From Candidatus Neomicrothrix sp. UBA2110 (GTDB lineage Bacteria; Actinomycetota; Acidimicrobiia; Acidimicrobiales; Poriferisodalaceae), in assembly GCA_002331465.1 (NCBI GenBank), contig DCYM01000042.1, positions 1 to 36,008 on the forward strand: a stretch of DNA of 36,008 nucleotides. Direction: 5' to 3'. Positions within the stretch are counted from its first letter, which is position 1. Every line of letters starts with the position of its first letter. This document shows positions 1,167-21,642 of this stretch, piece by piece. The notes under the pieces are model-generated. The model was not told the origin of the DNA and did not search any database. It was given only the letters and a program-made list of their open reading frames with translations. The position numbers were made by a program, and so were the translations under genes.

Positions 1167-4100
1167 GCGTCGCTCCTCATGGCAAGGTCTTCGAGGATGT
1201 CGTCTGGATCTGCGGTCAACAATTGGTTTTCGTTGATGCCCAAAGCTGCCCGAAGCTGGTCGGCGTTAAGGTCTCCAAGAGAGCTGGATTTGGGTAACAC
1301 CATGTCAGCAATACGCCGCTTACCTTGGACTACCTCCTCGACGCGCTCATCGACCGTGCCCGGACAAACCAAGCGGTGGCAAATCACTGTCTTGGTCTGA
1401 CCGATTCTCCAAACGCGGTCTCGCGCCTGGTCCTCAACGGCAGGGTTCCACCAGCGGTCGTAAAGGACCACATGGCTTGCAGCCGTGAGATTGAGGCCGG
1501 TGCCGCCAGCCTTTAACGAAAGAACCATCGCACCGGGTCCCGTTCCATTTTGAAAGGTTTCTACGAGCCGATCTCGCTTACCTCTTGCTAGGCCGCCGTG
1601 GTAGCAGTCGATATCGATGCCGGTTCTCTGAGTCAAGTAGGTAGATAATCGCTCGCCCCAGGTAGCGAAGTGGGTGAAGATCAGAATCCGTTCCCCCGAA
1701 GCAAAAACTGAATCAATTATTTCATTCAAACGCGTGAGCTTTCCGCTTCGCCCTTCGAGGCTTACGTCGTCGTCGTTCTTGTCATAGTTCAGAGGATGGT
1801 TGCAGATTTGCTTCAACGCCGTTATGGCCGCCAAGACGAGGCCCTTTTGTTGTTTGATGTTCTGTTCACTTTGGGCGGTATCTCGCACCAGTTTGTCCAA
1901 AACCGCTTGATACAGACCGATTTGTTCGGGCGTCATCGTGCAGTGCGCTAGTTCATCGATACGGTCTGGCAGTTCTGCTGCAATGATTGGCTCTAGCTTG
2001 GTCCGGCGAAATACGAGCACACCATTGAGGGCGTGTAACGCTGATTCGGCAGCTCCGGCTGAATCACCAATTTGCCCTAATTGGTCGATAAATGCCGTGC
2101 GACCGCCGACTAGCCCCGGATTACAGAAATCCATGATTGCCCAGAGATCTCCAAGCCCATTTTCAATTGGAGTGCCTGTTAGAGCTAGTCGACTACGAGC
2201 CGTCAACTTTCGTAGTTCCTTGGCAGTAGCGCTCCGATGGTTTTTGATTACTTGAGCTTCGTCAAGCACTACACGATCCCAGTCGAGATCCGACAACTCG
2301 TCGATGTCTCGAACGGCGGTCCCATAGGTCGTGATCACTAGATCAGATTTTCGTATACGACTTCGAAGTTCTGGTCCGTTTACTCGCGAGGGCCCATGAT
2401 GGACTAACACTGACAAGTTGGGTGTAAAGCGGTTAGCTTCGGAAGCCCAGTTTCCTACTACGGCTGGAGGAGCGACTACTAATGCAGGAGCACTTCCGGG
2501 CGAGGTTGATATTCGGGCGAGAATGGTGGGGGTTTTACCAAGGCCCATGTCCAGTGCAAGACAGCCACCTAGACCGGCGTCATCAAGAAACTTGAGCCAG
2601 CCCACGGCTTCCGCCTGGTAACTCCGCAGTTCTCCACTGAACCCTGGAGGCCGCGTATCGGGTTCGTCTCTAACGTCGCCCGCAGCCCGGAGTAAATCGC
2701 CAGCCCAGCTTGCGCCAGCGAGGGTAACTCCTCCGCTGACTCCACCGCCCTCGAGTCCGAGAGCGTGCCGGAGCATTTCGGCGCCCGTGAGCCGAGTTGT
2801 GTCGGATCGTTCTGACAACGCCGCCGCTGCTTCGGCTAAGTCGGCGTGGTCCAGGGCTACCCATCGACCTCTTGATTGCACTAGTGGCCTTGCCTGCAAA
2901 GCCAACTTTTGTATTTCGGAGCTTGTTAGCTCGACGTCTCCAAATACGGCGCTCCAACTGACCGCGGTCAAATGTTGGGCGCCCACGATGCTGTCGTTAT
3001 CTTCAGCAGTTAACCGCAGCTGAGTGACCTGACGTCGCCGCGATAACGCCGGTACCCGAACCTCAAAACCTGCAGATTCGAGAGCTGGCCCGGTAACGGA
3101 CATGAGGTCCCATGCTTCGTCTTGGTCCAATAAGACTTCACCGCGGCGGCGTCCGCCTGGTCGCAAGAGAGCGGGCACGAGACGTTCGAGTCGTGTGTAT
3201 TGACCCTTCACTTCGGTTCGACGTGTGTTGGACCCGCTAACCATTGCCACCTCAACGGGATCTAAAGTGTGTTCCGGTCCCGGAGACAGCACCTTTAGTT
3301 GCCAGGCACCAGAGTCATCGGGTTCATCGAGTTGGACTATTAGCGCGTACTTTGCGACCGCTGTGACTGGTCGGGCCCATTGCTCAAGTCGTCTTGCAAG
3401 ATCAGAGCCATGGTCTGCAGCGGCAACGAAGGGTTTTCCGCCAAGGTTTGCCAAAAAGGTTTCAGCAACTTCGGCCTTCGTCCGTGGCTCAGGGGGCGGG
3501 GCTGGCACCTCGAGTCTGCGAGCTGCACTGGTAACGATCGCATTGACCATTCCCATGAGCGCGGATTGGACGACCGCTCGCGCGTCGGGGCCGGGGTCGG
3601 CAGCGCTAACCGCGCCAGGTAGCGAGGCGGCAAAGGCTTCAAGCCGATCTTTGCTGATTATGCCTGGCATCCACTGGACGATGAACTCACCGCGGTTATT
3701 TCGATTTCGCTTGTTTCGTCGTTTCCGAATTCGTTGCAATTTAGGAACAATCCTGCCTTGAGCTACGAGCTCGACTGCGGATGCAGCGACAAGGCTGAGC
3801 CATCGAGCGCTGGCCCCAAGCTCAGACTGCTCCACGGGGAGTGTCGATGGGGTCTCTAGCGAATTATTAGCTTCAAAGTCGTCCTCGGAGTCGGTGTGGT
3901 CATGTTCTTCGAGTGGTGCCTCTTCTACCGCAACGCTCAAAGATGGATCTGTCCACGGTTGCGTGGATAATGCTGCCAACCAGCCGAGGATGTCGGTAAC
4001 TTCAGCGCTTACAGCCGAGGCAGTGACCCCTCCAGGTAGTGAAACGTTGCGATGGTCCTCCCAGGCACTGGCTGGCGCACCAGTTTGCACTAAGCGATCC

Positions 4101-4582
4101 ATAACTTGTTCGGTAGTTTCGGGTTGGTTATAGGCTCCCGCCGCCCAAGCGATGACTCGGCCAGACGTCCAAGATAACTGGAGCACCGTTGACTCAGGAG
4201 GTGTATCGGGTGAAAGCGCCTCAACTTCTTCTTGCTCGTCTTCAAGGTCATATGGCTGACCAGTGGCGCGGCGGTATGCCGCCGTTAAGAGATTAAGTTC
4301 ACTTTCGAAGTCAACGATGATTTGGTTCCGCTGCGGTCCCTTGAGACGACGAACTGAGTGCAGACGGTCCTCAGACGCTTCAATCATGTCAATTAACACA
4401 TTTCGCCAACGTAGGCGATCGGTTGCAAGATCAGTTGTGGTGTGTTTGTCAGCTTCACCGTCTGCTTCTAAGCGCGCGAGTGCAGCGATTTCTTGCCAAG
4501 AACGGTCAACCAAACGCGATGGCAAACGCGCGTTAGTACCTGTCGGAAGTTCAGTTTCGGTTGTGGCGCTTAGTGATTGCAC
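1163..4582 (-). CDS. SNF2-family ATP-dependent helicase, HelZ-like, with a long N-terminal SNF2-helicase-associated region
   Basis: 1139-aa ORF with a GTG start. SNF2 motifs: LRSYQAEAVGWL, LALDMGLGKT (motif I), VLDEAQVIKN (motif II), and C-terminal helicase motifs LKAGGTGLNLTAASHVVLYDRWWNPAVEDQARDRVWRIGQ. The roughly 640-aa N-terminal extension (..RGRWVALD..) is typical of actinobacterial HelZ-type proteins. Confidence 0.9.
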   Translation of the reverse strand: MQSLSATTETELPTGTNARLPSRLVDRSWQEIAALARLEADGEADKHTTTDLATDRLRWRNVLIDMIEASEDRLHSVRRLKGPQRNQIIVDFESELNLLTAAYRRATGQPYDLEDEQEEVEALSPDTPPESTVLQLSWTSGRVIAWAAGAYNQPETTEQVMDRLVQTGAPASAWEDHRNVSLPGGVTASAVSAEVTDILGWLAALSTQPWTDPSLSVAVEEAPLEEHDHTDSEDDFEANNSLETPSTLPVEQSELGASARWLSLVAASAVELVAQGRIVPKLQRIRKRRNKRNRNNRGEFIVQWMPGIISKDRLEAFAASLPGAVSAADPGPDARAVVQSALMGMVNAIVTSAARRLEVPAPPPEPRTKAEVAETFLANLGGKPFVAAADHGSDLARRLEQWARPVTAVAKYALIVQLDEPDDSGAWQLKVLSPGPEHTLDPVEVAMVSGSNTRRTEVKGQYTRLERLVPALLRPGGRRRGEVLLDQDEAWDLMSVTGPALESAGFEVRVPALSRRRQVTQLRLTAEDNDSIVGAQHLTAVSWSAVFGDVELTSSEIQKLALQARPLVQSRGRWVALDHADLAEAAAALSERSDTTRLTGAEMLRHALGLEGGGVSGGVTLAGASWAGDLLRAAGDVRDEPDTRPPGFSGELRSYQAEAVGWLKFLDDAGLGGCLALDMGLGKTPTILARISTSPGSAPALVVAPPAVVGNWASEANRFTPNLSVLVHHGPSRVNGPELRSRIRKSDLVITTYGTAVRDIDELSDLDWDRVVLDEAQVIKNHRSATAKELRKLTARSRLALTGTPIENGLGDLWAIMDFCNPGLVGGRTAFIDQLGQIGDSAGAAESALHALNGVLVFRRTKLEPIIAAELPDRIDELAHCTMTPEQIGLYQAVLDKLVRDTAQSEQNIKQQKGLVLAAITALKQICNHPLNYDKNDDDVSLEGRSGKLTRLNEIIDSVFASGERILIFTHFATWGERLSTYLTQRTGIDIDCYHGGLARGKRDRLVETFQNGTGPGAMVLSLKAGGTGLNLTAASHVVLYDRWWNPAVEDQARDRVWRIGQTKTVICHRLVCPGTVDERVEEVVQGKRRIADMVLPKSSSLGDLNADQLRAALGINENQLLTADPDDILEDLAMRSDA

Positions 4583-4853: not shown

Positions 4854-6575
4854 ATGTTAGGGGTGATGCGCTGGTCCTCCGCCTTTATTCCGACGTTGCG
4901 TGACGCCCCGGCTGACGCTGAAGCGGCTAGCCACAAGCTTTTAGTCCGAGGGGGGTTCATTCGGCAGTTGCATTCTGGGCACTACAGCCTTTTACCCCTT
5001 GGACTACGAGTTCACGACAAGGTTGCTCAAATCGTGCGAGAAGAAATGGATGCTATCGGCGGTCAAGAGTTTCTTTTACCGGCCATGCACCCGGCATCGT
5101 TATGGAAACAGAGCGGCCGGTGGGACCTGATGGGCGAGGAGATGTTTCGCCTGCAAGACCGAAGTGGTGTGGAACTCGCCCTCGGGATGACGCACGAAGA
5201 GATCTTTTCCTCGATCGCGACTGTGTTGAACTCGTATAAAGAACTGCCGCAGATTTGGTATCAAATCCAAACAAAGTTCCGCGATGAGCCTCGGCCCAAA
5301 AGTGGTCTCCTGCGCGTTCGGGAGTTCGCTATGAAGGATTCCTACAGTTTCGACTTAGAAGACGTAGGACTTGATCGTGCGTTTCAGGCGCACCACGATG
5401 CGTACGTAAAGATATTCAAGCGGCTCAGCCTTAACGCGATGCCGGTCCAAGCCTCTTCGGGGTCGATGGGCGGGTCGGCAAGCATCGAGTTTATGGTCCC
5501 CTCACCTGCCGGTGAAGACGACGTTCTTCGATGCGTTAGCTGTGGGTACAAGGCAAATGTTGAGAGGGGAACATCAGAACTTGCTGTCATTGTTGATGAA
5601 ACCGGACCCGAAGAGCCAGAACGAATTGCTACTCCAGGTGTTCGAACCATCGCTGCGCTAGAGGAGATCGACGGTGGTGCTGTGGCTGAAAATCAGATAA
5701 AGACCATGGTGATGGTCATGGACGATGAAGTTACTTTGGCCTTGTTGCGTGGTGACCATCAACTCAACCTTCAGAAACTGCAGGATTATTCGGGAGCGGT
5801 GGATATACGACCAGCGGAACCCGCCGAAGTCGTGACAAAATTAGGTGCGAGCCCTGGCAGCCTCGGCGCAGTCGGCGTTAAATCACTGAAGGTCATCGCG
5901 GATTTCGCACTTGATGGTCGAACAAACATGATGACAGGCGCAAATGAAGACGACTGGCACTTGGGGGGTGTCTCCGTGCACCGAGACATTCAGGTGGATG
6001 GATGGGCTGACCTTCGCGAGGTTCAAGCTGGCGAACCTTGTGTTGAGTGTGGGGAAACCCTAGAGATCGTTCGATGCATAGAGGCCGGGCACATCTTCAA
6101 ACTCGGTCGAAAGTACGCCGACGCGATGGGAATTTCAGTACTGGATGCTGAGGGACGATCGCAGGTTCCGACTATGGGCAGTTACGGAATCGGTATTGGG
6201 AGGGCTGTAGCCGCCGTGGCTGAAAATCATCACGATGATGCTGGCCTGATTTGGCCCGTCTCGGTCGCCCCGTATCAAATTTTGGTTACGGTGCTAGATA
6301 TCGACGATGCAGCTTGTATGGACGTGGCATCTCAGTTGGAGGTATCGCTTCGCGAAGCAGGAATAGACGTCCTTGTGGACGATCGCAAAGCTCGTCCCGG
6401 AGTTAAATTCGCCGACGCCGAATTAATCGGTATCCCCTATCGGGTGACGGTGGGCGCTCGCGGCCTGGCGAAGGGTGAAGTGGAATTCACTCCACGTTCT
6501 ACAGGTGAAACGACAATGATTGATCGGCACGCGCTACTCGAAAGAGTTCTTGAAGCGCTAGTTGTCACTATCTGA
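4854..6575 (+). CDS. proS: Proline--tRNA ligase (bacterial type with insertion/editing domain)
   Basis: 573 aa. The N-terminus ..MRWSSAFIPTLRDAPADAEAASHKLLVRGGFIRQ matches bacterial ProRS. Class II motifs (FRDEPRPKSGLLRVREFAMKDSYSF) and a C-terminal anticodon-binding domain are present. GAGG lies 7 nt upstream of the ATG at 4854; an alternative ATG is at 4866. Confidence 0.95.
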   Translation: MLGVMRWSSAFIPTLRDAPADAEAASHKLLVRGGFIRQLHSGHYSLLPLGLRVHDKVAQIVREEMDAIGGQEFLLPAMHPASLWKQSGRWDLMGEEMFRLQDRSGVELALGMTHEEIFSSIATVLNSYKELPQIWYQIQTKFRDEPRPKSGLLRVREFAMKDSYSFDLEDVGLDRAFQAHHDAYVKIFKRLSLNAMPVQASSGSMGGSASIEFMVPSPAGEDDVLRCVSCGYKANVERGTSELAVIVDETGPEEPERIATPGVRTIAALEEIDGGAVAENQIKTMVMVMDDEVTLALLRGDHQLNLQKLQDYSGAVDIRPAEPAEVVTKLGASPGSLGAVGVKSLKVIADFALDGRTNMMTGANEDDWHLGGVSVHRDIQVDGWADLREVQAGEPCVECGETLEIVRCIEAGHIFKLGRKYADAMGISVLDAEGRSQVPTMGSYGIGIGRAVAAVAENHHDDAGLIWPVSVAPYQILVTVLDIDDAACMDVASQLEVSLREAGIDVLVDDRKARPGVKFADAELIGIPYRVTVGARGLAKGEVEFTPRSTGETTMIDRHALLERVLEALVVTI

Positions 6576-6635
6576 TCCATAATACGGTACTGTTCCACCA
6601 TGTGGATTGAGCCACATCTTAGTCAGGGTGTCTTT

Positions 6636-6654
6636 GGTCGCCGGCCCGGCGACC
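6636..6654 (+). terminator. GC-rich hairpin downstream of proS (candidate terminator, weak U-tract)
   Basis: GGTCGCCGG-C-CCGGCGACC is a near-perfect palindrome (7-bp stem with GGCCC loop is realistic). It is followed by GGCGCACGGTTTGGGTT, which has only short T runs. Confidence 0.3.
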
Positions 6655-6685
6655 GGCGCACGGTTTGGGTTCGGGAGCGACGTGT

Positions 6686-7390
6686 ATGAGCGAGCAACTA
6701 GAGCCTGAAGAGGATCTCGACCTTTCGTCGTTGAACGATGAAGACTTGACGGCACAGATGCACGATGATCTTTACGACGGGTTAAGAGACGAGGTCGTAG
6801 AAGGCACAGAGCTTCTACTTGGGCGTGGTTGGGGCCCTGACCGTGTCCTCAATGACGCCTTAGTAGAAGGCATGCGCGTCGTCGGCATCGATTTTCGCGA
6901 CGGCATTCTCTTTGTCCCTGAGGTCTTACTCGCCGCCAACGCAATGAAGGCCGGCATGGCAATCCTGAGACCTTTGCTTGCAGAAACCGGCGCAAAGCCG
7001 GTCGGTACGGTCGTTATCGGCACTGTCAAGGGCGACATCCATGACATAGGAAAAAATTTGGTTGCGATGATGCTGGAAGGCGCCGGCTTTGACGTATTTG
7101 ATCTAGGCATCAATACCGATGTGGACGAATATCTCGCAGCCCTAAACGAACACCAGCCAGACATCTTGGGGATGTCGGCCTTGTTGACGACCACGATGCC
7201 TTATATGAAAGTTGTAATCGACACGCTGACCGAACAAGGTCTTCGCGATGAGTACATAGTGCTCGTCGGCGGTGCGCCACTGAACCAAGAGTTCGGTGAT
7301 GCCATAGGAGCGGACGCGTACTGTCGCGATGCCGCAGTAGCTGCCGAAACCGCAATACAGTTTGTGCAAAAAAAGCGCGAAAGCGCGTGA
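6686..7390 (+). CDS. Methyltransferase-cognate corrinoid (B12-binding) protein, MtgC/MttC-like
   Basis: Carries the DxHxxG cobalamin-binding signature (GTVKGDIHDIGKNLVAMMLEGAGFDVFDLG), a B12-binding Rossmann domain and a helical cap. GGGAG lies 8 nt upstream of the ATG at 6686. The N-terminal roughly 35 aa are very acidic. Confidence 0.9.
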   Translation: MSEQLEPEEDLDLSSLNDEDLTAQMHDDLYDGLRDEVVEGTELLLGRGWGPDRVLNDALVEGMRVVGIDFRDGILFVPEVLLAANAMKAGMAILRPLLAETGAKPVGTVVIGTVKGDIHDIGKNLVAMMLEGAGFDVFDLGINTDVDEYLAALNEHQPDILGMSALLTTTMPYMKVVIDTLTEQGLRDEYIVLVGGAPLNQEFGDAIGADAYCRDAAVAAETAIQFVQKKRESA

Positions 7391-8034
7391 CGAAACCGCC
7401 GCGCCTTTTAGTGCTCGGCTGCGGTGCTTTAGCGCGAGAGTTCAGCGAGTTGCTGAAGTTGAATGGGCTTGCCGAAGTCACGCTTGAATTTTTACCTGCA
7501 GCACTCCACAATCGCCCCGAGAACATCCCTATTCAAGTACGCGAACGGTTGGAGATCGCGGTCCACAAATACGACAAAATCTTGTTGGGCTACGGCGATT
7601 GCGGGACTGGTGGCGGCTTGGATGCACTTTGCGACGAATTCAATGTTGTTCGCTTGCCGGGTGCGCATTGCTATGAGTTCTATTTGGACGGTGGGGTGTT
7701 TGAAGCACTCCACGACTCGGAACCAGCGACGTTTTACTTGACGGACTATTTAGCGAAGCATTTCGACCGCCTCGTCTTTGATGGATTAGGGATCACCTCC
7801 CATCCAGAACTCCTCGAGATCTATTTTGGTAACTACAAGCGCGTCGTTTTCTTGACCCAAACTGATTCTGTCGAACTACGCGCGCATGCCTTACACGCGG
7901 CAACCAAGCTTGGGTTGCCGTTGGAGGTGACGGCCACTGGCTATGGCCAGATGGAAACGGCAGTCATTAATTTCGGAATTCGCCCTCGAAAGTCGGATAG
8001 CGGATCGCTGCAACCGGTAGGCGCAGTTCAATGA
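7387..8034 (+). CDS. DUF1638 domain protein (unknown function, corrinoid-methyltransferase associated)
   Basis: The GTG start overlaps the corrinoid-protein stop (GTGA). The pattern LVLGCGAL...LPAALHNRP...LLGYGDCGTGG...PGAHCYEF matches my memory of the DUF1638 family. Confidence 0.65.
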   Translation: MTKPPRLLVLGCGALAREFSELLKLNGLAEVTLEFLPAALHNRPENIPIQVRERLEIAVHKYDKILLGYGDCGTGGGLDALCDEFNVVRLPGAHCYEFYLDGGVFEALHDSEPATFYLTDYLAKHFDRLVFDGLGITSHPELLEIYFGNYKRVVFLTQTDSVELRAHALHAATKLGLPLEVTATGYGQMETAVINFGIRPRKSDSGSLQPVGAVQ

Positions 8035-8366
8035 CGAGCCGAGGAGGGCGTCGACGCACACAGGGAATCACAATCATTTCCTGGCGCGATATCCCAGCCC
8101 AGGTCACCGTTATTTCTGACGGAGATAAGCAAACAGTCGTTCTTTCAGACCGCTTTCAGCACGCCATTGATCGAGCAGCGGTAGTAGCTGGCTTCACTGA
8201 AACCAACGCATACGTAGGGGAATGGCGCCGCAATGCACGCCCTCTCGCTGGGGCCGCTGGCGACGCTATCAAGTCGTTGGTGGCTCAGCTTGAAGCGGAA
8301 CATAGCCCGGACCGCCTCGAGGCGTTAATTCGCAACGGTGGCCTTGACTCTTTAAGTCCTAAGTAG
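8031..8366 (+). CDS. Small conserved protein resembling the 'virulence factor'-domain family found in MttB clusters
   Basis: ATGA overlap with the DUF1638 stop. The motif ISWRDIPAQV...DRFQHAIDRAAV...AYVGEWRR resembles, from memory and unverified, the small proteins annotated 'virulence factor' next to MttB/corrinoid genes in Alphaproteobacteria. Confidence 0.5.
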   Translation: MTSRGGRRRTQGITIISWRDIPAQVTVISDGDKQTVVLSDRFQHAIDRAAVVAGFTETNAYVGEWRRNARPLAGAAGDAIKSLVAQLEAEHSPDRLEALIRNGGLDSLSPK

Positions 8367-8440
8367 ACCCCACTGTGATCTCAAACAAGCGTGTGACCTG
8401 AGATCGAAGACGGCGACAAGACAGACCCGACAGGAACGGT

Positions 8441-9352
8441 ATGACCGACACAGTGATCAGTTCAGCATCGAAAGAGGTAGTCATTGGTTTCGATCGGCCC
8501 TTCGTGATGATCGGAGAGAGGATCAATCCCACGGGACGGAAGCTTCTTGCTGAGGAAATGAAGAACGGCGATTTCTCTCGAGTGGAAGCCGACGCGTTAA
8601 GCCAGGTTGCTGCCGGTGCACACATGCTCGACGTCAACGCCGGAATTCCGTTAGCTGACGAACCTGCGTTGCTCTGCAAAGCGATTCGACTCGTACAGTC
8701 GGTGACTGATGTGCCGCTATCTATCGACTCCTCCATTATTGAGGCCTTAGAGGCAGGCATAGCCGCATACGAGGGGAAACCGCTGATCAACTCCGTTACG
8801 GGAGAACTAGAAGTAATGGAACGGATCCTCCCACTAGTGGCAAAAAGCGGCGCTGCCGTGGTTGCGATCTCCAACGATGAAACTGGGATCAGCGAGGACC
8901 CTGACGTTCGATTCGAGGTAGCGAAACGAATCGTGAGTGTTGCCAATGATTTCGGAATTCCAACAGCAGATGTAGTTGTTGACCCTTTGGTGATGCCCAT
9001 CGGAGCGATGGGCAACGCGGGCCAACAGGTTTTCCGCCTTGTCCGCCGCCTTCGAGAAGAATTAGGAGTCAATACAACCTGTGGGGCATCCAACGTGAGC
9101 TTCGGGCTCCCGAATCGCCACGCGATCACGGGAACTTTTCTGGCGATGGCCGTTGGTGCCGGAATGACGTCGGCGATCATGAACCCGCTCCATTCGGAGG
9201 TGAAATCAGCTGTCATGGGAGCGGATGTGCTTATGGGAAACGACCAGAATTGCGCGAATTGGATCAGCATTCACCGCGACCCAAACGCGACTTCAACAGT
9301 ACGCGGCGGCCGTAGAAACCGGCGACGAGGACCCACCCAAGAGACAGTCTGA
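8441..9352 (+). CDS. Methyltetrahydrofolate:corrinoid methyltransferase (pterin-binding, DHPS-like TIM barrel; MtgA/AcsE/MetH-domain-like)
   Basis: Motifs IGERINPTGRKLLAEEMKNGDF, MLDVNAG, PLSIDSS, LINSV and CGASNVSFGLPNR are typical of pterin-binding methyltransferase domains. Confidence 0.85.
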   Translation: MTDTVISSASKEVVIGFDRPFVMIGERINPTGRKLLAEEMKNGDFSRVEADALSQVAAGAHMLDVNAGIPLADEPALLCKAIRLVQSVTDVPLSIDSSIIEALEAGIAAYEGKPLINSVTGELEVMERILPLVAKSGAAVVAISNDETGISEDPDVRFEVAKRIVSVANDFGIPTADVVVDPLVMPIGAMGNAGQQVFRLVRRLREELGVNTTCGASNVSFGLPNRHAITGTFLAMAVGAGMTSAIMNPLHSEVKSAVMGADVLMGNDQNCANWISIHRDPNATSTVRGGRRNRRRGPTQETV

Positions 9353-9359
9353 GAACGTC

Positions 9360-11396
9360 ATGAGCAGCGAACATCGAGTTATCTTCACTCCGTCTGGCCT
9401 AGAAGGTCGCACATCTGAAGGAACCACCGCGCTGGATGTGGCTCGAGAGCTTGGCGTTGATCTAGACAGTGTTTGTGGAGGTAGAGGAATCTGTGGCCGC
9501 TGCCAGGTGGTGCCGTCGTTCGGAGAATTTCCCAAATGGGCGCTTCACTCGAACCCCGCTCATTTAAGTGCTCCGAACACGACGGAAGGTGCCTACAGCG
9601 GAAAGCGCTCAATGGAGCAAGGTGCCCGACTCGGATGCCAGGCGAACATTCTTGGCGACATCGTTCTCGACGTCCCGCCGGCAAGTCAACTGCATGCGGC
9701 GGTGATTAGAAAGGAAATTAACCTCGCTGGGCTCGTGCTAGATCCGATCAGCACCTTGCATGTTATTTCAATCCCCAAACCAGAGCTAGGAGCCTCTTCT
9801 TCACTTACCGAGGCAGTGCGAGCGGCCCTTGTCGAAGAGTGGTCACTTGAGGTCGACGGGTTTAAACCAGAGGCCTTGCGCTCCCTGCAAACAGCTGCCG
9901 GTCAAGCAGAGAGCATCCTGACCGTGCAAGTTCGTCGAAGCCTGATTGGGTCTAGGGTCGAATCGGTTCGACCAGGCATGTCGGTGCAGTTGTTTGGGAT
10001 CGCCGTCGATGTTGGCTCAACGACAATTGCCGGCCACCTGCTCGATTTGGCGACGGGTGAACTGCTGGCCACCGGCGGGCTTATGAACCCCCAGATCCGC
10101 TTAGGTGAAGACCTGATGAGTCGGGTGAGCTACGCGATGATGAATGCCGACGGAGACAAGGAGCTAACTCGGGTAGTTCGGACGGCGATCTCCGAACTGA
10201 TTCAGAGTCTGGTAACAGAAGCGAACGTCGACGTTACTCACGTCGCAGAGCTGGTTATGGTTGGTAACCCAGTGATGCATCATCTGCTTCTTGGCTTGGA
10301 TCCAACGCCTTTGGGACAGGCCCCATTCCTTCTCGCGACTGCCGACGCTGTTGAGCTACCTGCCAAAAATCTTGACTTTCCCACCCAGCGAGCCTCTGTT
10401 TATGTGCCTCCATGCATTGCCGGCCACGTGGGTGCCGACACCGCTGCTGTGATTTTGGCCGAAGGCCCACATCGGTCACCGGAGATGCAGCTACTTGTCG
10501 ATATTGGTACCAACGCAGAAATTGTGCTGGGCAACGAGGAACGCCTATGCGCTGCGTCAAGCCCGACAGGTCCAGCATTTGAAGGCGCCCAAATCTCTTG
10601 TGGCCAGCGAGCGATTCCTGGGGCAATCGAACGAGTGCGGATTAATCGAGAAACTTTCGAGGCTGCTATTAAGCCAATTGGCTGTGATATCTGGTCCAAT
10701 GAACCGGGTTTTCTGGAGGCGACAAAGGACACAGGTATCACAGGGATTTGTGGGTCGGGCATTGTTGAAGCGATCGCTGAAATGTTTCTCAGCGGCGTAA
10801 TGACGCGCGACGGCGTTATTTTGGATAACCGGGAGAAATGTGACTGGGTTGTGGAAAATGATCGCACCTTCTCTTACGTCCTGTACCCCGCGACAGACCA
10901 GACGCACGGGCAGCCTGTCGTCATAACCCAAAACGATGTGAGAGCGATACAACTAGCAAAAGCTGCCCTGAGAGCTGGCATTGATCTATTGATGGAGCAC
11001 GCTCAAGTACAAGAGGTAGACATGGTTCGTTTAGCTGGGGCTTTCGGTGCACACATCGACCCTGTGTACGCGATGGTTCTTGGGTTAATCCCCGACTGCG
11101 CCCTTACACAGGTTCAAGCGGTTGGTAACGCGGCTGGTAGCGGGGCTGTTCGCATGCTGATCTCACGCGAGCAACGCCTTGAAATTGAAGAAGTTGTTCA
11201 AACCGTAGAGAAAATTGAAACAGCGACAGAACCCCGCTTTCAGCAACTCTTTGTCGATGCGATGGCTTTTCCGCATGCAACATCGTCGACCCCCCACCTG
11301 AATGAATTAGTTGATTTTTCTAACGTAATTGTTGAGCCGGTAGAGGCTCGTCGTCGCAACCGGAATCGACGCCAGGGCGTCAAGAAGGAGATTTAG
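9360..11396 (+). CDS. RACo-type corrinoid reductive activase: N-terminal plant-type [2Fe-2S] ferredoxin plus ASKHA (DUF4445) ATPase domain
   Basis: The ORF-track start at 9225 overlaps the upstream gene. The in-frame ATG at 9360 gives MSSEHRVIFTPSG..CGGRGICGRCQV (2Fe-2S). The ASKHA signatures DVGSTTIAGHL and VDIGTNAEIV follow. Confidence 0.85.
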   Translation: MSSEHRVIFTPSGLEGRTSEGTTALDVARELGVDLDSVCGGRGICGRCQVVPSFGEFPKWALHSNPAHLSAPNTTEGAYSGKRSMEQGARLGCQANILGDIVLDVPPASQLHAAVIRKEINLAGLVLDPISTLHVISIPKPELGASSSLTEAVRAALVEEWSLEVDGFKPEALRSLQTAAGQAESILTVQVRRSLIGSRVESVRPGMSVQLFGIAVDVGSTTIAGHLLDLATGELLATGGLMNPQIRLGEDLMSRVSYAMMNADGDKELTRVVRTAISELIQSLVTEANVDVTHVAELVMVGNPVMHHLLLGLDPTPLGQAPFLLATADAVELPAKNLDFPTQRASVYVPPCIAGHVGADTAAVILAEGPHRSPEMQLLVDIGTNAEIVLGNEERLCAASSPTGPAFEGAQISCGQRAIPGAIERVRINRETFEAAIKPIGCDIWSNEPGFLEATKDTGITGICGSGIVEAIAEMFLSGVMTRDGVILDNREKCDWVVENDRTFSYVLYPATDQTHGQPVVITQNDVRAIQLAKAALRAGIDLLMEHAQVQEVDMVRLAGAFGAHIDPVYAMVLGLIPDCALTQVQAVGNAAGSGAVRMLISREQRLEIEEVVQTVEKIETATEPRFQQLFVDAMAFPHATSSTPHLNELVDFSNVIVEPVEARRRNRNRRQGVKKEI

Positions 11397-11397
11397 C

Positions 11398-12924
11398 GTG
11401 GCTACACGTAGAGGAGGCGGGCGAGCGGCTCGTCGTGAACTAAGAAGCGCCGCTCCCCCACCATCGGCTCCGTTTATGGAACGCAAGATGCCGCCAGTCG
11501 AGGTACTCGACGAAGAGGCGTTGGTTCAGATTGAAGAAAATGCGGAAACTATCCTGAGTGAAATCGGCATAGCGTTCCAAGAGTTCCCCGAAGCCCTCGA
11601 CTTGTGGCGCGGTGCAGGCGCTGAGGTTGAGGGAGATTTAGTTAAGTTTCCCAAAGGGCTATGTCGGCAGTTAGTTAAGGAATCTGCTCCGAGTATTTAC
11701 ACCCAACACGCTCGCAATCCGCAACGTTCCGTTCAGATTGGCGGCAACAACACAGTATTCGCCCCGAACTATGGATCACCTTTCGTGACAGATCTAGACC
11801 TCGGGCGCCGATACGCCACCCTGGAAGATTTCCAGAACGTGGTGAAACTTACATACAGCCTTCCAAATCTTCATCACAGCGGGGGCACCGTTGTCGAACC
11901 AGTTGATGTTCCAGTCAACAAACGACACCTCGACATGGTCTATTCACATTTGAAGTTCAGTGACAAGCCTCTGATGGGTTCGGTGACGGCCCCTGAAAGA
12001 GCTGTCGATTCTATCGAATTGTGTCGCCTTGCCTTCGGCGGAGATCTCAGTGACCGCACTGTTACCACCAGCCTCATCAATGCGTCTTCACCCCTGCGTT
12101 GGGATGCCACCATGTTGGGAGCAGCGAAGGTTTATGCTGAGAATAATCAAGCTTGCGTGATCTCACCGTTCATTTTGGCGGGTGCCATGTCGCCGGTCAC
12201 CGTGGCTGGGTTGGCTGCGCAAGCGTTGGCCGAAGCCCTTTCGGGCATGGCGTTTTGTCAACTTGTGAGGCCAGGCGCACCAGTGGTTTTTGGCACATTC
12301 GCCTCGTCTATGTCCATGGCGACCGGCGCGCCTACTTTCGGAACGCCCGAAGCAGGCCTAGCGATATATGTAATGGCCGCGCTTGCGAGACGAGTTGGTG
12401 TGCCGTTTCGTTCCGGGGGGCAAATGACTTCATCGAAGAGCCCTGACGCCCAAGCAGCTTACGAGTCACTCGCGACCCTGCTGCCCACGATGCAAGCGGG
12501 CGTAAATTTTGTTCTTCACGCTGCCGGCTGGATAGAGGGCGGGCTTGCTCTCAGCTACGAGAAGTTGGTGATGGATGCGGACCAACTGGGCATGATGCAG
12601 GTGTACGCGGACGGCGTGGACATGACTGAAAACGGGCAAGCCATGGATGCCTTTAGGACTAACCCGCATGGGCAACATTTCCTTGGGAATCCCCACACGT
12701 TGGAAAATTTCGAGTCTGCTTTCTATAGATCCCAAATTGCCGACAACAACAGTTACGAACAGTGGTTTGAGGAAGGCGAGAAGACCGCTGCACAGCGAGC
12801 GAACGAGATCTGGAAACAAATGTTGGCAGACTACGAACCACCACCACTCGATGAAGCGGTTGACTTGGCGATGCTTGACTACATGGCCCGCCGTAAGAGT
12901 GAAGAACCCGATGCGATTGGCTGA
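11398..12924 (+). CDS. MttB-superfamily (trimethylamine methyltransferase family) corrinoid-dependent methyltransferase, non-pyrrolysine type; quaternary amine (likely glycine betaine) substrate
   Basis: 508 aa with no internal TAG. AAGGAG lies 7 nt upstream of the GTG at 11398. The N-terminal RRGGGRAARR and the overall length and composition are typical of non-Pyl MttB homologues. It is the last gene of the corrinoid operon. Confidence 0.85.
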   Translation: MATRRGGGRAARRELRSAAPPPSAPFMERKMPPVEVLDEEALVQIEENAETILSEIGIAFQEFPEALDLWRGAGAEVEGDLVKFPKGLCRQLVKESAPSIYTQHARNPQRSVQIGGNNTVFAPNYGSPFVTDLDLGRRYATLEDFQNVVKLTYSLPNLHHSGGTVVEPVDVPVNKRHLDMVYSHLKFSDKPLMGSVTAPERAVDSIELCRLAFGGDLSDRTVTTSLINASSPLRWDATMLGAAKVYAENNQACVISPFILAGAMSPVTVAGLAAQALAEALSGMAFCQLVRPGAPVVFGTFASSMSMATGAPTFGTPEAGLAIYVMAALARRVGVPFRSGGQMTSSKSPDAQAAYESLATLLPTMQAGVNFVLHAAGWIEGGLALSYEKLVMDADQLGMMQVYADGVDMTENGQAMDAFRTNPHGQHFLGNPHTLENFESAFYRSQIADNNSYEQWFEEGEKTAAQRANEIWKQMLADYEPPPLDEAVDLAMLDYMARRKSEEPDAIG

Positions 12925-13752
12925 TCAGCCGCCGACTACCGCAGCTGTGCCTACTATCGCCATCGCGATGCCCCAGATCTGTCTTGCACTGGCTTGGTCG
13001 TTGTACGCAAATACTCCAACCAAGACGCTGAAAACCGGAAACAGAGACATAGCCACGACGGTGGCCAGAGGATCGAACTGCAGCCCGAGAAAACATGTGA
13101 TGCTGGCGCATCCGGCGAACACGCCAGCGACAAGTGCAGCCAAGCGTGTCCCGGACGGCGGTGTCATGGATGCGCGTGCGGTCATTGCGACGGGAACCAT
13201 GACTGCGAAGGCAAGTAAACGTTGGCTCGCGAGAACCCATGTCCCGCCGTTACCGGTCACGTTGAGTAGGACTGTTACCCCGAATCCGTACCCGAGTCCC
13301 GAACTCGACCCCCACAAGACTCCACTTTTGATTCTTCCCCCAACCTCCCCATCGGTGGTGACCATCACCAAACCCGCTAACGCTACGACGACGCCGATTG
13401 AGCCGAGTTGGGAAACACCTTGACCAATGGCGAGAACCCATATGAATGGCACACAAGTTGCTATGACCGCTGTTACGGGAGCCACCACGGCCGATGTCGT
13501 ATTTTTGAGACCGAAGTAGTAGCAGCAAAGTCCGGTGGCGAACCCGAGTCCTGATGCAGCGCCTAATGCAAGATCCCGGTATTCAGGTTTGCCGCGCCAT
13601 ATTAGGAGAGAGAGTGCCACGGTGACAGCACCAAAACCCTGCATCGCCGCTGCGCTGGTGATGGGTGAAGAACGGATTGAGACGCGCCTGCCGAATAGAT
13701 CCCCCAGACCTATCAAAAGAGCCGTCAAGAGGCCGAATGCTGCGCCGATCAC
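12925..13752 (-). CDS. DMT/EamA-family integral membrane transporter
   Basis: 275 aa with about 10 hydrophobic segments rich in Gly/Ala/Val, and a two-fold internal organisation typical of EamA. Its stop abuts the mttB stop. Confidence 0.65.
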   Translation of the reverse strand: MIGAAFGLLTALLIGLGDLFGRRVSIRSSPITSAAAMQGFGAVTVALSLLIWRGKPEYRDLALGAASGLGFATGLCCYYFGLKNTTSAVVAPVTAVIATCVPFIWVLAIGQGVSQLGSIGVVVALAGLVMVTTDGEVGGRIKSGVLWGSSSGLGYGFGVTVLLNVTGNGGTWVLASQRLLAFAVMVPVAMTARASMTPPSGTRLAALVAGVFAGCASITCFLGLQFDPLATVVAMSLFPVFSVLVGVFAYNDQASARQIWGIAMAIVGTAAVVGG

Positions 13753-13823
13753 TGACGTCTAATGGGGGTAGCCACGAAGGTGAGGGTACGCTGCCCATCG
13801 GTTAGCGGCTCGCGGAGAAACAG

Positions 13824-15497
13824 ATGACGAAAGCCTTGCGACGCGAAAAAGAAATCACTTACGACTTTGTCATTGTCGGTGGTGGTTCGGCAGGGTGCGC
13901 CCTCGCCAACCGTTTAAGTGAAGACGCCTCCACTGATGTGCTGCTGCTAGAAGCGGGACGCCCTGATTATATTTGGGACCCGTTCATCCACATGCCTGCT
14001 GCTTTTGCTTTTCCTATCGGTTCCCGTTTTTATGACTGGAGATATGAGTCAGAGCCCGAAGCGTCAATGAATGGCCGCCGTGTGTACCACGCTCGCGGGA
14101 AGGTGCTCGGTGGGAGCTCAAGCATCAACGGGATGATTTTTCAACGCGGTAATCCGCTAGATATGGAGAGGTGGTCGCAGCAACCAGGGATGGAAACATG
14201 GGATTACGCGCACACTCTCCCCTACTTCAAACGACTTGAGACCTGCCTTGCTGGCGGAGACCAATGGCGGGGCGATGTCGGTCCACTAAAACTTGAACGC
14301 GGCCCCGCTAAGGGACCGCTGTTCGAGGCGTTCTTCCTTGCATGTCAACAGGCCGGGTACTCGATGACCACCGACGTCAACGGATATCGACAAGAAGGGT
14401 TTGCGGCTTTTGATCGAAACATCTACCGCGGTCGACGGCTGAGTGCTGCACGGGCATACCTTCATCCGGTCATGAGCAGACCCAATCTTGTTGTCCGAAC
14501 GCGAACACACACGACTCGTTTATTGACTGAACACCAATGTGTTGTGGGGGTAGAGGCTGTTGAACGTTCAATGTTCGGCCGGCAGGGAAAGCCGGTTGAG
14601 TACCGGGCTAGGAACGTAATTTGTTGCGCTGGGGCGCTCAACACCCCTCAATTGCTTCAATTGAGTGGCATCGGTCCAAAGAAAATACTGGAAAAAGTCG
14701 GTATTCCAGTGGTCGCAGACCTACCCGGTGTGGGCGAGAACCTCCAAGATCACTTGGAGGTGTACATTCAGCACTCGTCGTTACAGCCCATTACCCAGCA
14801 ACCAAATTTATCGGTAGGGAGGCGGCCGTTGATCGGTCTTCAATGGTTGTTTCGGCGTGGACCAGCGACCTCAAACCATTTCGAAGCAGGTGGATTCGTT
14901 CGCAGCAATAGAGAGGCGTCTTACCCGAACCTAATGATGCATTTTTTGCCACTGGCAGTGCGATACGACGGCGAGGTCGCGAAAACCGACCATGGTTACC
15001 AGGTACACGTCGGCCCGATGTACGCAGACACGCGAGGGTCAGTGATGATCCAGTCCGATGACCCCTTCGTGAAGCCTCAGATCCGTTTCAATTATCTCAG
15101 TACTTGGAATGACTGCAGAGAGTGGATCGCGGCTGTGAAAACTGCTCGCAACGTTCTAAAGCAGCCCGCGTTCGACGAAATCAACGGGGGAGAACTGTCC
15201 CCCGGTCCGAATGTAGAAACTGACGAAGACATATTGGATTGGGTTCGACGCGATGCTGAAACAGCGCTCCACCCGTGTGGAACAGCGCGGATGGGTTTGG
15301 AAGCCCACGCGGTGGTGGACCCTAAGACAATGGGTGTTCATTCGATTAAGGGGCTCAAGGTGGTCGATGCTTCAGTCATGCCGTTCATCACCAATGGCAA
15401 TATCTACGCTCCAACCATGATGATCGCGGAAAAAGCAGCTGATTTGATCCTAGGGAATACTCCCCTAGAGCCGGAAGAGCCGGGTTTTCATCAATAA
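13824..15497 (+). CDS. betA: Choline dehydrogenase (GMC oxidoreductase)
   Basis: Strong resemblance to E. coli BetA along its length: [90 protein letters not shown]. Confidence 0.9.
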
Positions 15498-15533: not shown

Positions 15534-16763
15534 TCAGTGTCGACGTCGATATAGCAAAGCAACGACCATTCTCGATGCCCGTAACGGAAAGGGCTGAAAA
15601 CGGCTCTGTTCCTCGACTGGAGGAGCGTCATGGAGAAACACGCGATACAACAAATATGCGGTCATGACAACGAAAATCACCGCCGGCACGCAAAAGTACA
15701 TATTGAGGGAAGCACTCATTGCGGGTGCGGCGACCAAGGGTCCGACAAAAGCACCAACCCCATGTACTCGGACAAGCAGCGCCGCTGCACCTGTCATTTG
15801 CTCTGTTCGGAGCCAGTCATTGGTGTACGCGACCGTGATTGAGTAGATGGGGAAAGCCATCCCACCGATGAGGCCTAGGCAAACTATCGAAACAAGTCCC
15901 GCCCCACTGATCGCCAGCATCACAAAGCACATAGCCGCCGCCGCCGCGGATGCTGCCGTCAGGACGCCACGGCGAGGTACTCGGTCAGATAAACGTCCAA
16001 GAGGGATCTGGAGAAGCACGGACCCCAGAAGAGGCGCTCCGACAAAGTTTGCGATTGTAATTGCTCCCCACCCGTTTGCCGCTCCATAGACGGGGCCGAG
16101 GCCAATGATGATCCCTAGAGACATGCCCGAAAGGAAACAGACGACGAGGCCTGTCGGCACAATCGAATACAGAGCGCGCAGAGTAAAGGGTTCCGGTACA
16201 GCTACCGGTGGAGCCGTTCTGCTTGACAGCGCTATAGGCACAAGTGCCATTGAAACCATCACCGATGCGACCGCAAAGAGCGTGAAGCCGCTTGTGGTGG
16301 CGAGTCCAATGACATACTGGCCACTCATCGTGGCGCCTACCGCGATGACCGTGTACACGCTCAGTATGCGGCCTCGGGATTGGTTGGTGGCCAGGTCATT
16401 TAGCCAGGACTCCGCAACGACATATAGCGCGGCGCAGCACACTCCGAAGGCAAGGCGACACAAACCCCAACTGATCGGGCTTATCCAAAGTCCCTGCAGG
16501 AGAACGATGCTGGAGGCAGTTGAGGCCAAGCCCGCGAAAGTACGAATGTGACCCACTTTGGCTAGGGCGTGTCCTACGAATCGGGTCCCCACCATAAAGC
16601 CCGCGTAATAGAGGGCCATTACGAGGGATGCGGTAAGCGTGCTAAATCCAGCTTCCTCTGCTCGCAAACCCAGCAGGGGACGTTGAAGGCCCACCCCTGC
16701 CTGCAACAGCGCTATGCCTAAGAAAAGAGACCACGCGTTGGAAGTGATGGAGGGTTTCGGCAC
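15534..16763 (-). CDS. MFS transporter
   Basis: 409 aa with about 12 predicted TM segments. An MFS-like loop motif (LGRLSDRVPRRG) lies between helices. Confidence 0.75.
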   Translation of the reverse strand: MPKPSITSNAWSLFLGIALLQAGVGLQRPLLGLRAEEAGFSTLTASLVMALYYAGFMVGTRFVGHALAKVGHIRTFAGLASTASSIVLLQGLWISPISWGLCRLAFGVCCAALYVVAESWLNDLATNQSRGRILSVYTVIAVGATMSGQYVIGLATTSGFTLFAVASVMVSMALVPIALSSRTAPPVAVPEPFTLRALYSIVPTGLVVCFLSGMSLGIIIGLGPVYGAANGWGAITIANFVGAPLLGSVLLQIPLGRLSDRVPRRGVLTAASAAAAAMCFVMLAISGAGLVSIVCLGLIGGMAFPIYSITVAYTNDWLRTEQMTGAAALLVRVHGVGAFVGPLVAAPAMSASLNMYFCVPAVIFVVMTAYLLYRVFLHDAPPVEEQSRFQPFPLRASRMVVALLYRRRH

Positions 16764-16886: not shown

Positions 16887-17753
16887 TCAGGGTGCTTCTC
16901 TCGGTTTGAATTCAGGAGCATGGACGTACTGCCACCCAAAGCGGCCCTTGATGCATAGATGGCCTGAAGTTACTGAATGGTCGGACGGCGAGGTGACCTT
17001 AACTATGTGATTGTCTTGCGTGTGAAGTTCCAGGCTGCAACCCACACCGCAATACGAACAGACGGTTTCGGTTACTGTTTGCTCCGACGGTCGCCAGTCG
17101 TTGGCATCGCGAAGATCGAACTCAGTTTTAAATTGCAGAGCGTTGGTGGGACACACTCCGACGCAGTTTCCGCAATACACACATGCAGATTCTGGGAGCG
17201 GCACTTCATATTCAGTAGAGACCCGAGCATCGAAGCCGCGGCCAGCGATAGCGATAGCAAAAGTGTGTTGGGCATCATCTCCGCACGCCTCAACGCACTT
17301 GTAGCAAAGGACGCACTTGTCGTAAGCGCGAACGAAGAGATCATCTTCAATTTTAATTTGGTCTTCAATTTTAGCTGGGGCTTTGTATCGCTCAGTGTCA
17401 ACGTCGTACATCTCCGACCAGGCCACCAGATCGGGGCTTTGCGACAGGTCGTTACTAGACGCCAAGAACTCTAAAACCATCTTTCGGCTCCGATGGACGC
17501 GGTCGGTGTCCGTCAGAATTTGTGCACCGTCTTCACATACCCGAGAGCATGACGAAACCAACGTCCGGGACCCTTGTTGTTCGACGACGCAAAGCCTGCA
17601 TGCATTGGCAGGTGTGAGATTCTCAGCCCAACAAAGAGTCGGTATCTCTATCCCTGCTGAGTTTGCTGCCTGGAGAAGCGTCGTTCCCCCCTCAACTCTG
17701 ACCTTTATGCCGTTGATGTGTACCGAGACTTGGGAATCGCCTTGTTCTTTCAT
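16887..17753 (-). CDS. Formate dehydrogenase Fe-S module (NuoG/FdsA N-terminal-like): [2Fe-2S], His/Cys [4Fe-4S], 2x[4Fe-4S] ferredoxin, plus the MopB FS0 [4Fe-4S] domain, with no molybdopterin domain
   Basis: VHINGIKVRVEGGTTLLQAA..CRLCVVE (2Fe-2S); CVLCYKCVEAC and CVYCGNCVGVCP (ferredoxin clusters); C-terminal CSYCGVGCSLE...GHLCIKGRFGWQYV (Molybdop_Fe4S4-type motif). The protein ends about 15 aa after that motif. ATGA overlap with the upstream gene. Confidence 0.85.
   Translation of the reverse strand: MKEQGDSQVSVHINGIKVRVEGGTTLLQAANSAGIEIPTLCWAENLTPANACRLCVVEQQGSRTLVSSCSRVCEDGAQILTDTDRVHRSRKMVLEFLASSNDLSQSPDLVAWSEMYDVDTERYKAPAKIEDQIKIEDDLFVRAYDKCVLCYKCVEACGDDAQHTFAIAIAGRGFDARVSTEYEVPLPESACVYCGNCVGVCPTNALQFKTEFDLRDANDWRPSEQTVTETVCSYCGVGCSLELHTQDNHIVKVTSPSDHSVTSGHLCIKGRFGWQYVHAPEFKPREAP
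17344..17373 (-). repeat. In-frame 18-nt-period direct repeat (12 nt identical) inside the Fe-S module linker
   Basis: TCTTCAATTTTA occurs at 17344-17355 and again at 17362-17373. It encodes KIEDQ-IKIEDD. Confidence 0.6.
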
Positions 17754-21413: not shown

Positions 21414-21562
21414 AAAGACTCCTGTTTCGCGATTGCCGTGGAGAGACGAACCTCTTTCAGTGTACGGGGCATCTAAGGCCAGCCTCAGCGCAGTCGTTCT
21501 TTCGAATACGGAAATGCGACGGTGTTCGGTAACCGACTCCACCTCGAGAAATCTTGTGAGTA

Positions 21563-21602: not shown

Positions 21603-21642
21603 GCTGTTCCACGATGTGGCACACTCAGGACGGAGGTTTCTA

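Follow-up and report, generated by a model that had tools for sequence, protein, structure and literature searches.

Which methylated compound does a compact cluster of corrinoid-dependent methyltransferase genes serve in an actinobacterium, and what becomes of the methyl group? The cluster that raises this question lies at positions 6686-12924 of a 36,008-nucleotide stretch of DNA (hereafter the window) from Candidatus Neomicrothrix sp. UBA2110, a marine member of the Acidimicrobiia (assembly GCA_002331465.1, contig DCYM01000042.1, positions 1 to 36,008). An original prediction, made from the sequence alone, described a six-gene operon built around an MttB homologue that lacks pyrrolysine and proposed that its host, a respiratory organism, uses it to turn glycine betaine into dimethylglycine. 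The domains, the orthology and the gene context that we describe below all support this proposal. By analogy with characterised counterparts, the operon would supply every component of an MtgBCD-type, cobalamin-dependent route of methyl transfer, and it is probably a glycine betaine demethylase.

The same prediction regarded this chemistry as much less studied in respiratory organisms, a view that is now outdated, as the same system has been tested genetically in aerobic marine bacteria (PMC12478193; bioRxiv 10.64898/2025.12.19.695462). In R. pomeroyi, knockouts of mtgC and of mtgD do not grow on glycine betaine and are methionine auxotrophs (Mausz et al. PNAS 2025, PMC12478193). On N-osmolytes this organism induces RamA and the DUF1638 protein, and MetF2 more strongly than any other protein (PMC12478193). 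In P. inhibens, an mtgB1 gbcAB double mutant fails to grow on glycine betaine (bioRxiv 10.64898/2025.12.19.695462), and a RamA-like gene and the DUF1638 gene are needed for a split methionine synthase with which the system has MtgC and MtgD in common (Price et al. 2018, PMC5764234). The published neighbourhood survey covers the Alpha-, Gamma- and Deltaproteobacteria, with the Actinomycetota appearing only as 5% of mtgC reads (PMC12478193), and we found no literature specific to betaine metabolism in Acidimicrobiia. The system described here is a further, phylum-level example of the kind described in 2025 in aerobic marine bacteria, not a new kind. What is new is a compact and conserved actinobacterial operon, the recurrent PF13769 gene within it, the observation of a possible aromatic swap in the presumed substrate site, and a candidate IclR regulon.

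The six genes and their products

Reading of the open reading frames (ORFs) together with domain searches placed six co-directional and tightly packed genes between 6686 and 12924 on the forward strand (Table 1), and each assignment to a family either exceeds a curated cutoff or spans the full length. The genes, their families and the operon are as originally predicted, as are the GTGA and ATGA overlaps; the former joins mtgC to the DUF1638 gene at 7387 and the latter the DUF1638 gene to the PF13769 gene at 8031. The remaining gaps are 74, 7 and 1 nt, the largest of which exceeds the predicted range of 0-70 nt. The starts at 6686, 9360 and 11398 are supported by the lengths of the homologues (234, 677 and 508 aa, respectively). 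The longest ORF of the RACo gene begins at 9225, and the ATG at 9360 was taken as its start because the homologues are of 677 aa. The GC content of the operon (0.54-0.56) is the same as that of its surroundings, and its composition therefore shows no sign of recent horizontal acquisition.

In the corrinoid protein MtgC, the DxHxxG motif reads DIHDIG (residues 117-122, nt 7034-7051), and the best NCBIfam matches are MtgC-type models, all under cutoff (202 vs 370). The activase carries the full RACo/RamA set, that is, an N-terminal [2Fe-2S] ferredoxin domain with cysteines at positions 39, 45, 48 and 93, a middle domain and a C-terminal ASKHA ATPase domain, and it matches PDB 3ZYY over its full length (266 bits; residues 3-640 against residues 2-622 of 3ZYY). 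While the C. hydrogenoformans RACo (3ZYY) and RamA have these same three domains, RACo acts on the CoFeSP of the acetyl-CoA pathway, whereas the partner here would be the MtgC-type corrinoid protein.

Compared with the products of Sinorhizobium meliloti and Paracoccus aminovorans, respectively, identity is 73 and 71% for MtgC, 63 and 61% for MtgD, 60 and 64% for MtgB, 49 and 51% for RACo, and 42 and 40% for DUF1638; the PF13769 protein is 38% identical to its S. meliloti counterpart. At these identities (38-73%) we take all six products to be orthologous to the Sinorhizobium/Paracoccus MtgB-MtgC-MtgD-RamA-DUF1638 module. For MtgB, orthology was measured against the mtgC-linked copies of the two organisms. 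In both the S. meliloti and the P. aminovorans locus the PF06253 gene adjoins the genes for a cobalamin-binding protein and DUF1638, and the S. meliloti locus additionally carries bmt (PF02574, mtgE) and a glycine betaine ABC transporter.

Two further features of these reference loci deserve mention. Directly 3' of mtgB, S. meliloti (L005, 13560-14264) and Paracoccus (L006, 11514-12221) encode a protein of ~235 aa with no Pfam match, which one record labels 'ferredoxin' and the other 'hypothetical'; the window has nothing that corresponds to it, and the gene after mtgB there is that of a convergent EamA transporter. The S. meliloti record that holds the mtg/bmt locus (CP090106.1, 3.72 Mb) is titled 'plasmid pSymB', and its size suggests a mislabelled chromosome.

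Set against the alphaproteobacterial MtgBCD(E), RamA and DUF1638 systems of R. pomeroyi, P. inhibens and S. meliloti, the likenesses are extensive. All components but mtgE have orthologues here, the corrinoid protein carries DxHxxG, a MetF2-type methylenetetrahydrofolate reductase (MTHFR) gene and genes for folate-linked one-carbon (C1) oxidation and dimethylglycine demethylation lie nearby, and both kinds of system are found expressed in seawater. In contrast, the genes are scattered in R. pomeroyi and P. inhibens but form one six-gene operon in the actinobacterium, with PF13769 as a recurrent member, and the regulator here is of the IclR family with its own palindrome, whereas GlxA/AraC-type regulators stand beside the Paracoccus and Mesorhizobium genes.

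Conservation and expression

Conservation was counted in 52 species-representative loci of Acidimicrobiia with full 10-kb flanks. The genes for MtgC, MtgD, RACo and MttB were present in all 52, that for DUF1638 in 51 and that for PF13769 in 31, the last having been lost in the Poriferisodalis clade. The order of the core genes holds in 52 of the 52 loci, and wherever the order was listed in full it was MtgC-DUF1638-(PF13769)-MtgD-RACo-MttB. This recurrence far exceeds chance. The variable flanks share a recurring set of genes, namely betA, a major facilitator superfamily (MFS) transporter, formate dehydrogenase, IclR, electron-transfer flavoprotein (ETF), a dimethylglycine dehydrogenase (DMGDH)-like enzyme, formate-tetrahydrofolate ligase (FTHFS) and MetF2.

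Homology searches with the MttB-family protein returned close Acidimicrobiia relatives only. The closest homologues, 80-97% identical, come from metagenome-assembled genomes of marine Acidimicrobiia (among them Acidimicrobiaceae SP304, UWMA-0303 and MedAcidi-G3), with Ca. Poriferisodalis more distant, and the DNA of the window was found in many marine metagenomes. Two loci binned as Gammaproteobacteria/Ca. Azotimanducaceae (L069 and L070) have an MttB that is 70% identical to the window protein and ranks among Ilumatobacter sequences, which indicates mis-binning or inter-phylum transfer.

Four seawater metatranscriptomes contained contigs 90-99% identical to the operon that together cover all six genes. 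These contigs bridge four of the five junctions (mtgC/DUF1638, DUF1638/PF13769, PF13769/mtgD and RACo/mttB), and those of two runs start at 6618. They carry no strand information, and some may stem from carried-over DNA.

A possible second role in methionine synthesis

A dual role of this machinery has been demonstrated in R. pomeroyi and P. inhibens. Here, too, MtgC, MtgD, RACo and DUF1638 might mainly or also form the core of a split cobalamin-dependent methionine synthase, with MtgE encoded elsewhere and betaine demethylation as one of two roles. Ten Ilumatobacteraceae/acIV-type loci carry, ~2.2 kb downstream of mttB, an MtgE orthologue with 61-67% identity to S. meliloti Bmt, which makes a dual role plausible for the class. 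However, no MtgE homologue (PF02574) was found in the 36-kb window, mttB is part of the operon in each of the 52 loci, and the surroundings consist of C1-oxidation genes, not methionine genes. Published marine loci are often without mtgE nearby (PMC12478193). We regard such a second or main role as a serious possibility that falls somewhat short of being probable. The loci with MtgE/Bmt are L076, L078, L079, L080, L083, L085, L086, L088, L089 and L092; in L089 the order is betA - mtgC-DUF1638-PF13769-mtgD-RACo-mttB - metF2 - ... - mtgE.

The MttB-family protein and its probable substrate

For the demethylase function that we favour, the question of substrate turns on the last protein of the operon. 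It covers positions 1-498 of the 500 in the PF06253 profile, a full-length TIM-barrel domain, and its matches in the PDB are led by 4YYC (680 bits), followed by 2QNE/9YCE (405 bits). The former, a 'putative trimethylamine methyltransferase' of S. meliloti to which the window protein is ~61% identical, is the closest solved structure; over residues 20-524 it matches the S. meliloti mtgC-linked protein at 100% identity, and its gene is linked to mtgC and DUF1638 as in the window, albeit in a different phylum. We found no published function or ligand analysis for 4YYC. The D. hafniense MtgB/MtgC/MtgA system (2QNE, 9YCE; PMC13080624), whose MtgB is 43% identical, shares with the window a pyrrolysine-free TIM-barrel enzyme of the MttB family, a three-component logic and a RamA-type activase. 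It differs in that the host here is aerobic, that DUF1638 and PF13769 are extra, and that the corrinoid protein falls under the NCBIfam MtgC cutoffs.

In D. hafniense MtgB, mutagenesis and the 9YCE structure show that glycine betaine is held by Y97 and F356 through cation-pi contacts and by R312 and H348 at its carboxylate (PMC13080624). We mapped these residues through the 9YCE alignment, in which index + 2 gives the native numbering, a relation that holds for all four. Y97, R312 and H348 are conserved as Y125, R338 and H374; F356 corresponds to G382, and Y355 is also a glycine here. Y125, R338, H374, W378, G381 and G382 do not vary among 120 close homologues, nor do the S. meliloti and Paracoccus proteins depart from them, and 4YYC has the same Y, R, H, W, G, G signature. 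The family comprises 8,464 clusters at 50% identity (E<=0.001). Of 78 full-length representatives, 35 have an aromatic residue at 378 and 28 have one at 382, whereas none has it at both positions and 15 lack it at either, an exclusivity with p = 2e-10 in Fisher's test, uncorrected for phylogeny. The second aromatic wall may have moved from position 382 to 378, with W378, four residues upstream of G382, as the likely replacement of F356.

Given that the protein is orthologous to the mtgC-linked copy, that the carboxylate and aromatic pairs are retained, and that betA, a DMGDH-like enzyme and ETF are encoded in its neighbourhood, we consider glycine betaine the most likely substrate of MtgB and hold this to be a probable assignment.

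Several observations weigh against it. G382 stands where one of the two aromatics needed for glycine betaine binding would be expected. Stand-alone alphaproteobacterial paralogues, 50-54% identical, are found beside LysR regulators, a proline-racemase-family gene or aminomethyltransferase genes, and those of Mesorhizobium and Leisingera carry the identical Y/R/H/W/G/G signature. MtyB and MtcB are 53% identical and have different substrates (PMC8604678), so that neither 43% identity to the D. hafniense protein nor 60-64% to those of S. meliloti and Paracoccus is decisive. Furthermore, betA lies within 10 kb in just 16 of the 52 related loci, and neither betB nor a classical betaine transporter (BCCT or ProVWX) was found in the 36-kb window.

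The same machinery could serve an MtgB that demethylates another carboxylate-bearing quaternary amine, for example proline betaine, carnitine, gamma-butyrobetaine, trigonelline/homarine or beta-alanine betaine. The loss of F356, the shared signature of paralogues in different catabolic contexts and the divergence of substrates among near relatives all speak for this, and Mausz et al. note that a genome may have as many as seven PF06253 paralogues and anticipate further substrates (PMC12478193). However, this copy is the one in physical linkage with mtgC, mtgD and RACo, an arrangement that S. meliloti and Paracoccus share, its neighbours betA and DMGDH-like plus ETF produce and consume exactly glycine betaine and dimethylglycine, and the aromatic pair Y125 and W378 is kept together with the carboxylate pair R338/H374. 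We therefore consider another betaine unlikely as the substrate. Among known enzymes for such compounds, E. limosum MtpB, MtcB, MtyB and MthB (proline betaine, carnitine, gamma-butyrobetaine and phosphocholine, respectively) belong to the same non-pyrrolysine MttB superfamily and likewise feed a shared corrinoid protein and a methyl-tetrahydrofolate-forming methyltransferase, a likeness known from their published description. They keep R312, less often H348, and lack the aromatic pair (PMC13080624), whereas the window protein retains Y125.

The four betaine-site residues of D. hafniense were also considered as a discriminator of specificity and were rejected as such, since the stand-alone paralogues have the same signature. 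As that signature is common to paralogues in other catabolic contexts, it does not fix the substrate, and the original caution that specificity cannot be read from the sequence was well placed.

That the gene encodes a genuine trimethylamine methyltransferase (MttB), as its PF06253 membership and the database name 'trimethylamine methyltransferase' would have it, is effectively refuted: its sole stop codon is the terminal TGA and there is no in-frame TAG, as predicted; Met343 aligns with the pyrrolysine (X334 of 7XCL, M. barkeri MttB), at which position homologues show L, F or M; the score against TIGR02369, the equivalog of pyrrolysine-dependent MttB, is 261.7 bits, below the cutoff of 525; the match to 7XCL reaches 106 bits vs 405 bits to MtgB; and trimethylamine is not used by D. 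hafniense MtgB.

Neighbouring genes

The original prediction also named betA, a dimethylglycine dehydrogenase and ETF as neighbours, and all three are present, the first above its TIGR01810 cutoff and the others by their Pfam domains (Table 1); for the DMGDH-like protein, no NCBIfam equivalog reached its cutoff. Judged from their families, FTHFS, the MetF2-like MTHFR and formate dehydrogenase of the window make up a folate-linked route from methyl-tetrahydrofolate (methyl-THF) to CO2. In seven related loci the MetF2 gene is immediately 3' of mttB.

Table 1. Features of the window, with positions, strand and supporting matches.
Feature	Positions	Strand	Evidence and remarks
mtgC, corrinoid (cobalamin-binding) protein	6686-7390	+	234 aa; PF02607 + PF02310
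DUF1638 protein	7387-8034	+	PF07796
PF13769 'Virulence_fact' small protein	8031-8366	+	PF13769, 57 bits
mtgD, pterin-binding methyl-corrinoid:tetrahydrofolate methyltransferase	8441-9352	+	PF00809; NF005719 355 bits vs cutoff 259
RACo/RamA-type ATP-dependent reductive activase ([2Fe-2S] + ASKHA)	9360-11396	+	678 aa; Raco_middle (PF17651) + RACo_C_ter (PF14574)
mtgB-like non-pyrrolysine MttB-family methyltransferase	11398-12924	+	508 aa; PF06253 726.7 bits
EamA-family transporter, convergent with mtgB	12925-13752	-	PF00892; in 27/52 loci
betA, choline dehydrogenase	13824-15497	+	TIGR01810 766.8 vs cutoff 732.1
MFS transporter	15534-16763	-	PF07690; in 41/52 loci
NAD-linked formate dehydrogenase genes	16887-21542	-	Mo-subunit, NuoE/F fusion, FeS subunit with terminal Molybdop_Fe4S4
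IclR-family regulator	21616-22386	+	PF09339 + PF01614; in 38/52 loci
ETF alpha + beta	22419-24160	-	PF00766/PF01012
Dimethylglycine/sarcosine dehydrogenase-family enzyme (FAD + GcvT-like folate domain)	24197-26722	-	PF01266 + PF16350 + PF01571 + PF08669
Formate-THF ligase (FTHFS)	26963-28669	+	PF01268 820 bits
Divergent MTHFR, MetF2-like	28680-29564	+	PF02219 37.9 bits; TIGR00676 56 bits
Palindromic operator-like site GTTCCACCATGTGGATT	6592-6608		78 nt 5' of mtgC start codon
Palindromic site GTTCCACGATGTGGCAC	21606-21622		Formate dehydrogenase/iclR divergent intergenic region
Palindromic site GTTCCGCAGAGTGAAAC	26871-26887		DMGDH/FTHFS divergent intergenic region

The formate dehydrogenase has features of its own. 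The gene for its catalytic subunit contains an in-frame TGA at 21147-21149, within IDSCNRT*HAPSV, at the canonical position of selenocysteine, and 15 nt 3' of this TGA there is a hairpin whose loop reads GGUCU. We take this hairpin to resemble the selenocysteine insertion sequence (SECIS) of E. coli fdhF in sequence and spacing. Relatives show a matching split ORF pair of 88-93 aa and 544-558 aa. The architecture is also unusual in that the Mo-domain gene is without an N-terminal Fe4S4 domain; this domain forms the C-terminus of a separate NuoG-like FeS protein of 288 aa, which is encoded last, after the NuoE-NuoF fusion.

Upstream of the operon, the window encodes an Rv2466c-like mycothiol-dependent protein of the DsbA family (100-834) and an SNF2/DUF3670 helicase (1163-4582), both of which fit an actinobacterial origin, and the arrangement SNF2 helicase-proS-mtgC is syntenic in relatives.

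A conserved palindrome and a candidate regulon

Alignment of the mtgC upstream regions of relatives revealed a conserved palindrome, GTTCCAC-N3-GTGGAAC, and sites of the GTTCCACCATGTGGATT type upstream of mtgC are kept across divergent Acidimicrobiia. Allowing up to three mismatches, the window contains only three matches, and all are intergenic, although intergenic DNA accounts for 5.6% of the window. Across 80 related loci there are 84 sites with up to two mismatches, compared with 5.1 +/- 2.5 in shuffles, and 74 of the 84 lie no more than 250 nt upstream of mtgC, iclR, FTHFS, mttB or the MFS gene. Sites like GTTCCGCAGAGTGAAAC are found upstream of FTHFS in L056, L058 and L063, and loci of the Ilumatobacter type have a further copy that falls within the end of the RACo gene, ~125 nt upstream of mttB. 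We infer that the IclR-family protein is a candidate binder of the palindrome; its true start is probably ~90 nt downstream of the tabulated one, because homologues are called at 226 aa.

No cobalamin riboswitch precedes the mtg operon, as Rfam gave zero matches in the whole window at gathering thresholds and zero in 6450-6800 at E<=1. Scans of 6400-14000 for sigma-70 promoters and terminators yielded nothing that exceeded shuffle expectation. Between the palindromic operator and the mtgC start, at 6636-6654, lies a GC-rich inverted repeat, GGTCGCCGG-C-CCGGCGACC, which would be within the 5' leader if transcription begins near 6618; it is partially conserved in the closest relatives (L013 and L014) and absent in remoter ones.

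The accessory proteins DUF1638 and PF13769

The DUF1638 protein is presumed, by analogy, to be an accessory of cobalamin reactivation. Its AlphaFold2 (AF2) model (pLDDT 92.6) is a two-lobed alpha/beta structure, and C12, C72, C95, H41, H94 and H125 are invariant. A sequence search of the PDB returned nothing relevant. A transcarbamylase fold was considered and set aside, as the Foldseek matches were weak (TM <=0.3, rmsd ~13 A) and are regarded as generic two-lobed alpha/beta similarity.

The PF13769 protein has two invariant motifs, W18-R-D-I-P-A-Q24 and R41-F-Q..A-I-D-R-A-A50, and no Cys. Its AF2 model has a pLDDT of 81.8; Foldseek against the PDB gave no match at E<0.001 and a TM-score never above 0.26, and a PDB sequence search returned nothing. 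Where the gene is present in Acidimicrobiia loci it is always immediately 5' of mtgD, and in S. meliloti it lies upstream of metV-metF-mtgD. Although a recurrent member here, PF13769 is not mentioned in PMC12478193 or PMC5764234.

Proposed model and significance

Based on the literature on orthologues, we propose the following model. First, MtgB would bind a small quaternary amine with a carboxylate group, of which glycine betaine is the most likely, and the Co(I) corrinoid of MtgC would take one N-methyl group from the bound amine to yield dimethylglycine and methyl-Co(III)-MtgC. MtgD would then transfer the methyl group from MtgC to tetrahydrofolate. In an aerobe the corrinoid is likely to be oxidised to inactive Co(II) at times, and the RACo/RamA-type protein would then use ATP to restore Co(I), with DUF1638 and possibly the PF13769 protein as accessories. 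Subsequently, methyl-THF may be oxidised to CO2 by way of MetF2, a FolD step, FTHFS and the selenocysteine formate dehydrogenase; FolD was not seen in the window. Dimethylglycine would pass to the DMGDH-like enzyme and ETF, and betA would supply the pathway from choline. Finally, the shared palindromic operator and the conserved IclR-family regulator probably co-regulate the mtg, formate dehydrogenase/iclR and DMGDH/FTHFS units.

More tentatively, and as a reading that is less likely than not, we suggest that aerobic corrinoid methyltransferase systems have in PF13769 a dedicated and previously unrecognised component next to DUF1638, which might be a partner or chaperone of MtgD/MetF or might protect or load the corrinoid when oxygen is present, and that the betaine-to-CO2 route of Acidimicrobiia (mtg, DMGDH/ETF, FTHFS/MetF2 and selenocysteine formate dehydrogenase) is one IclR-controlled regulon marked by the palindrome.

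Glycine betaine is among the most abundant osmolytes of seawater and among its nitrogen and energy currencies, and the aerobic route of its demethylation was resolved only in 2025. The mtg operon offers a clean single-operon construct for reconstitution, and two accessory proteins, DUF1638 and PF13769, are brought forward together with a candidate regulon as testable. If our reading of the substrate is right, planktonic and sponge-associated Acidimicrobiia carry this B12-dependent route in a single operon that is compact, conserved and expressed and is tied to a complete methyl-oxidation pathway, which would extend the known betaine users and B12 consumers to the Actinomycetota.

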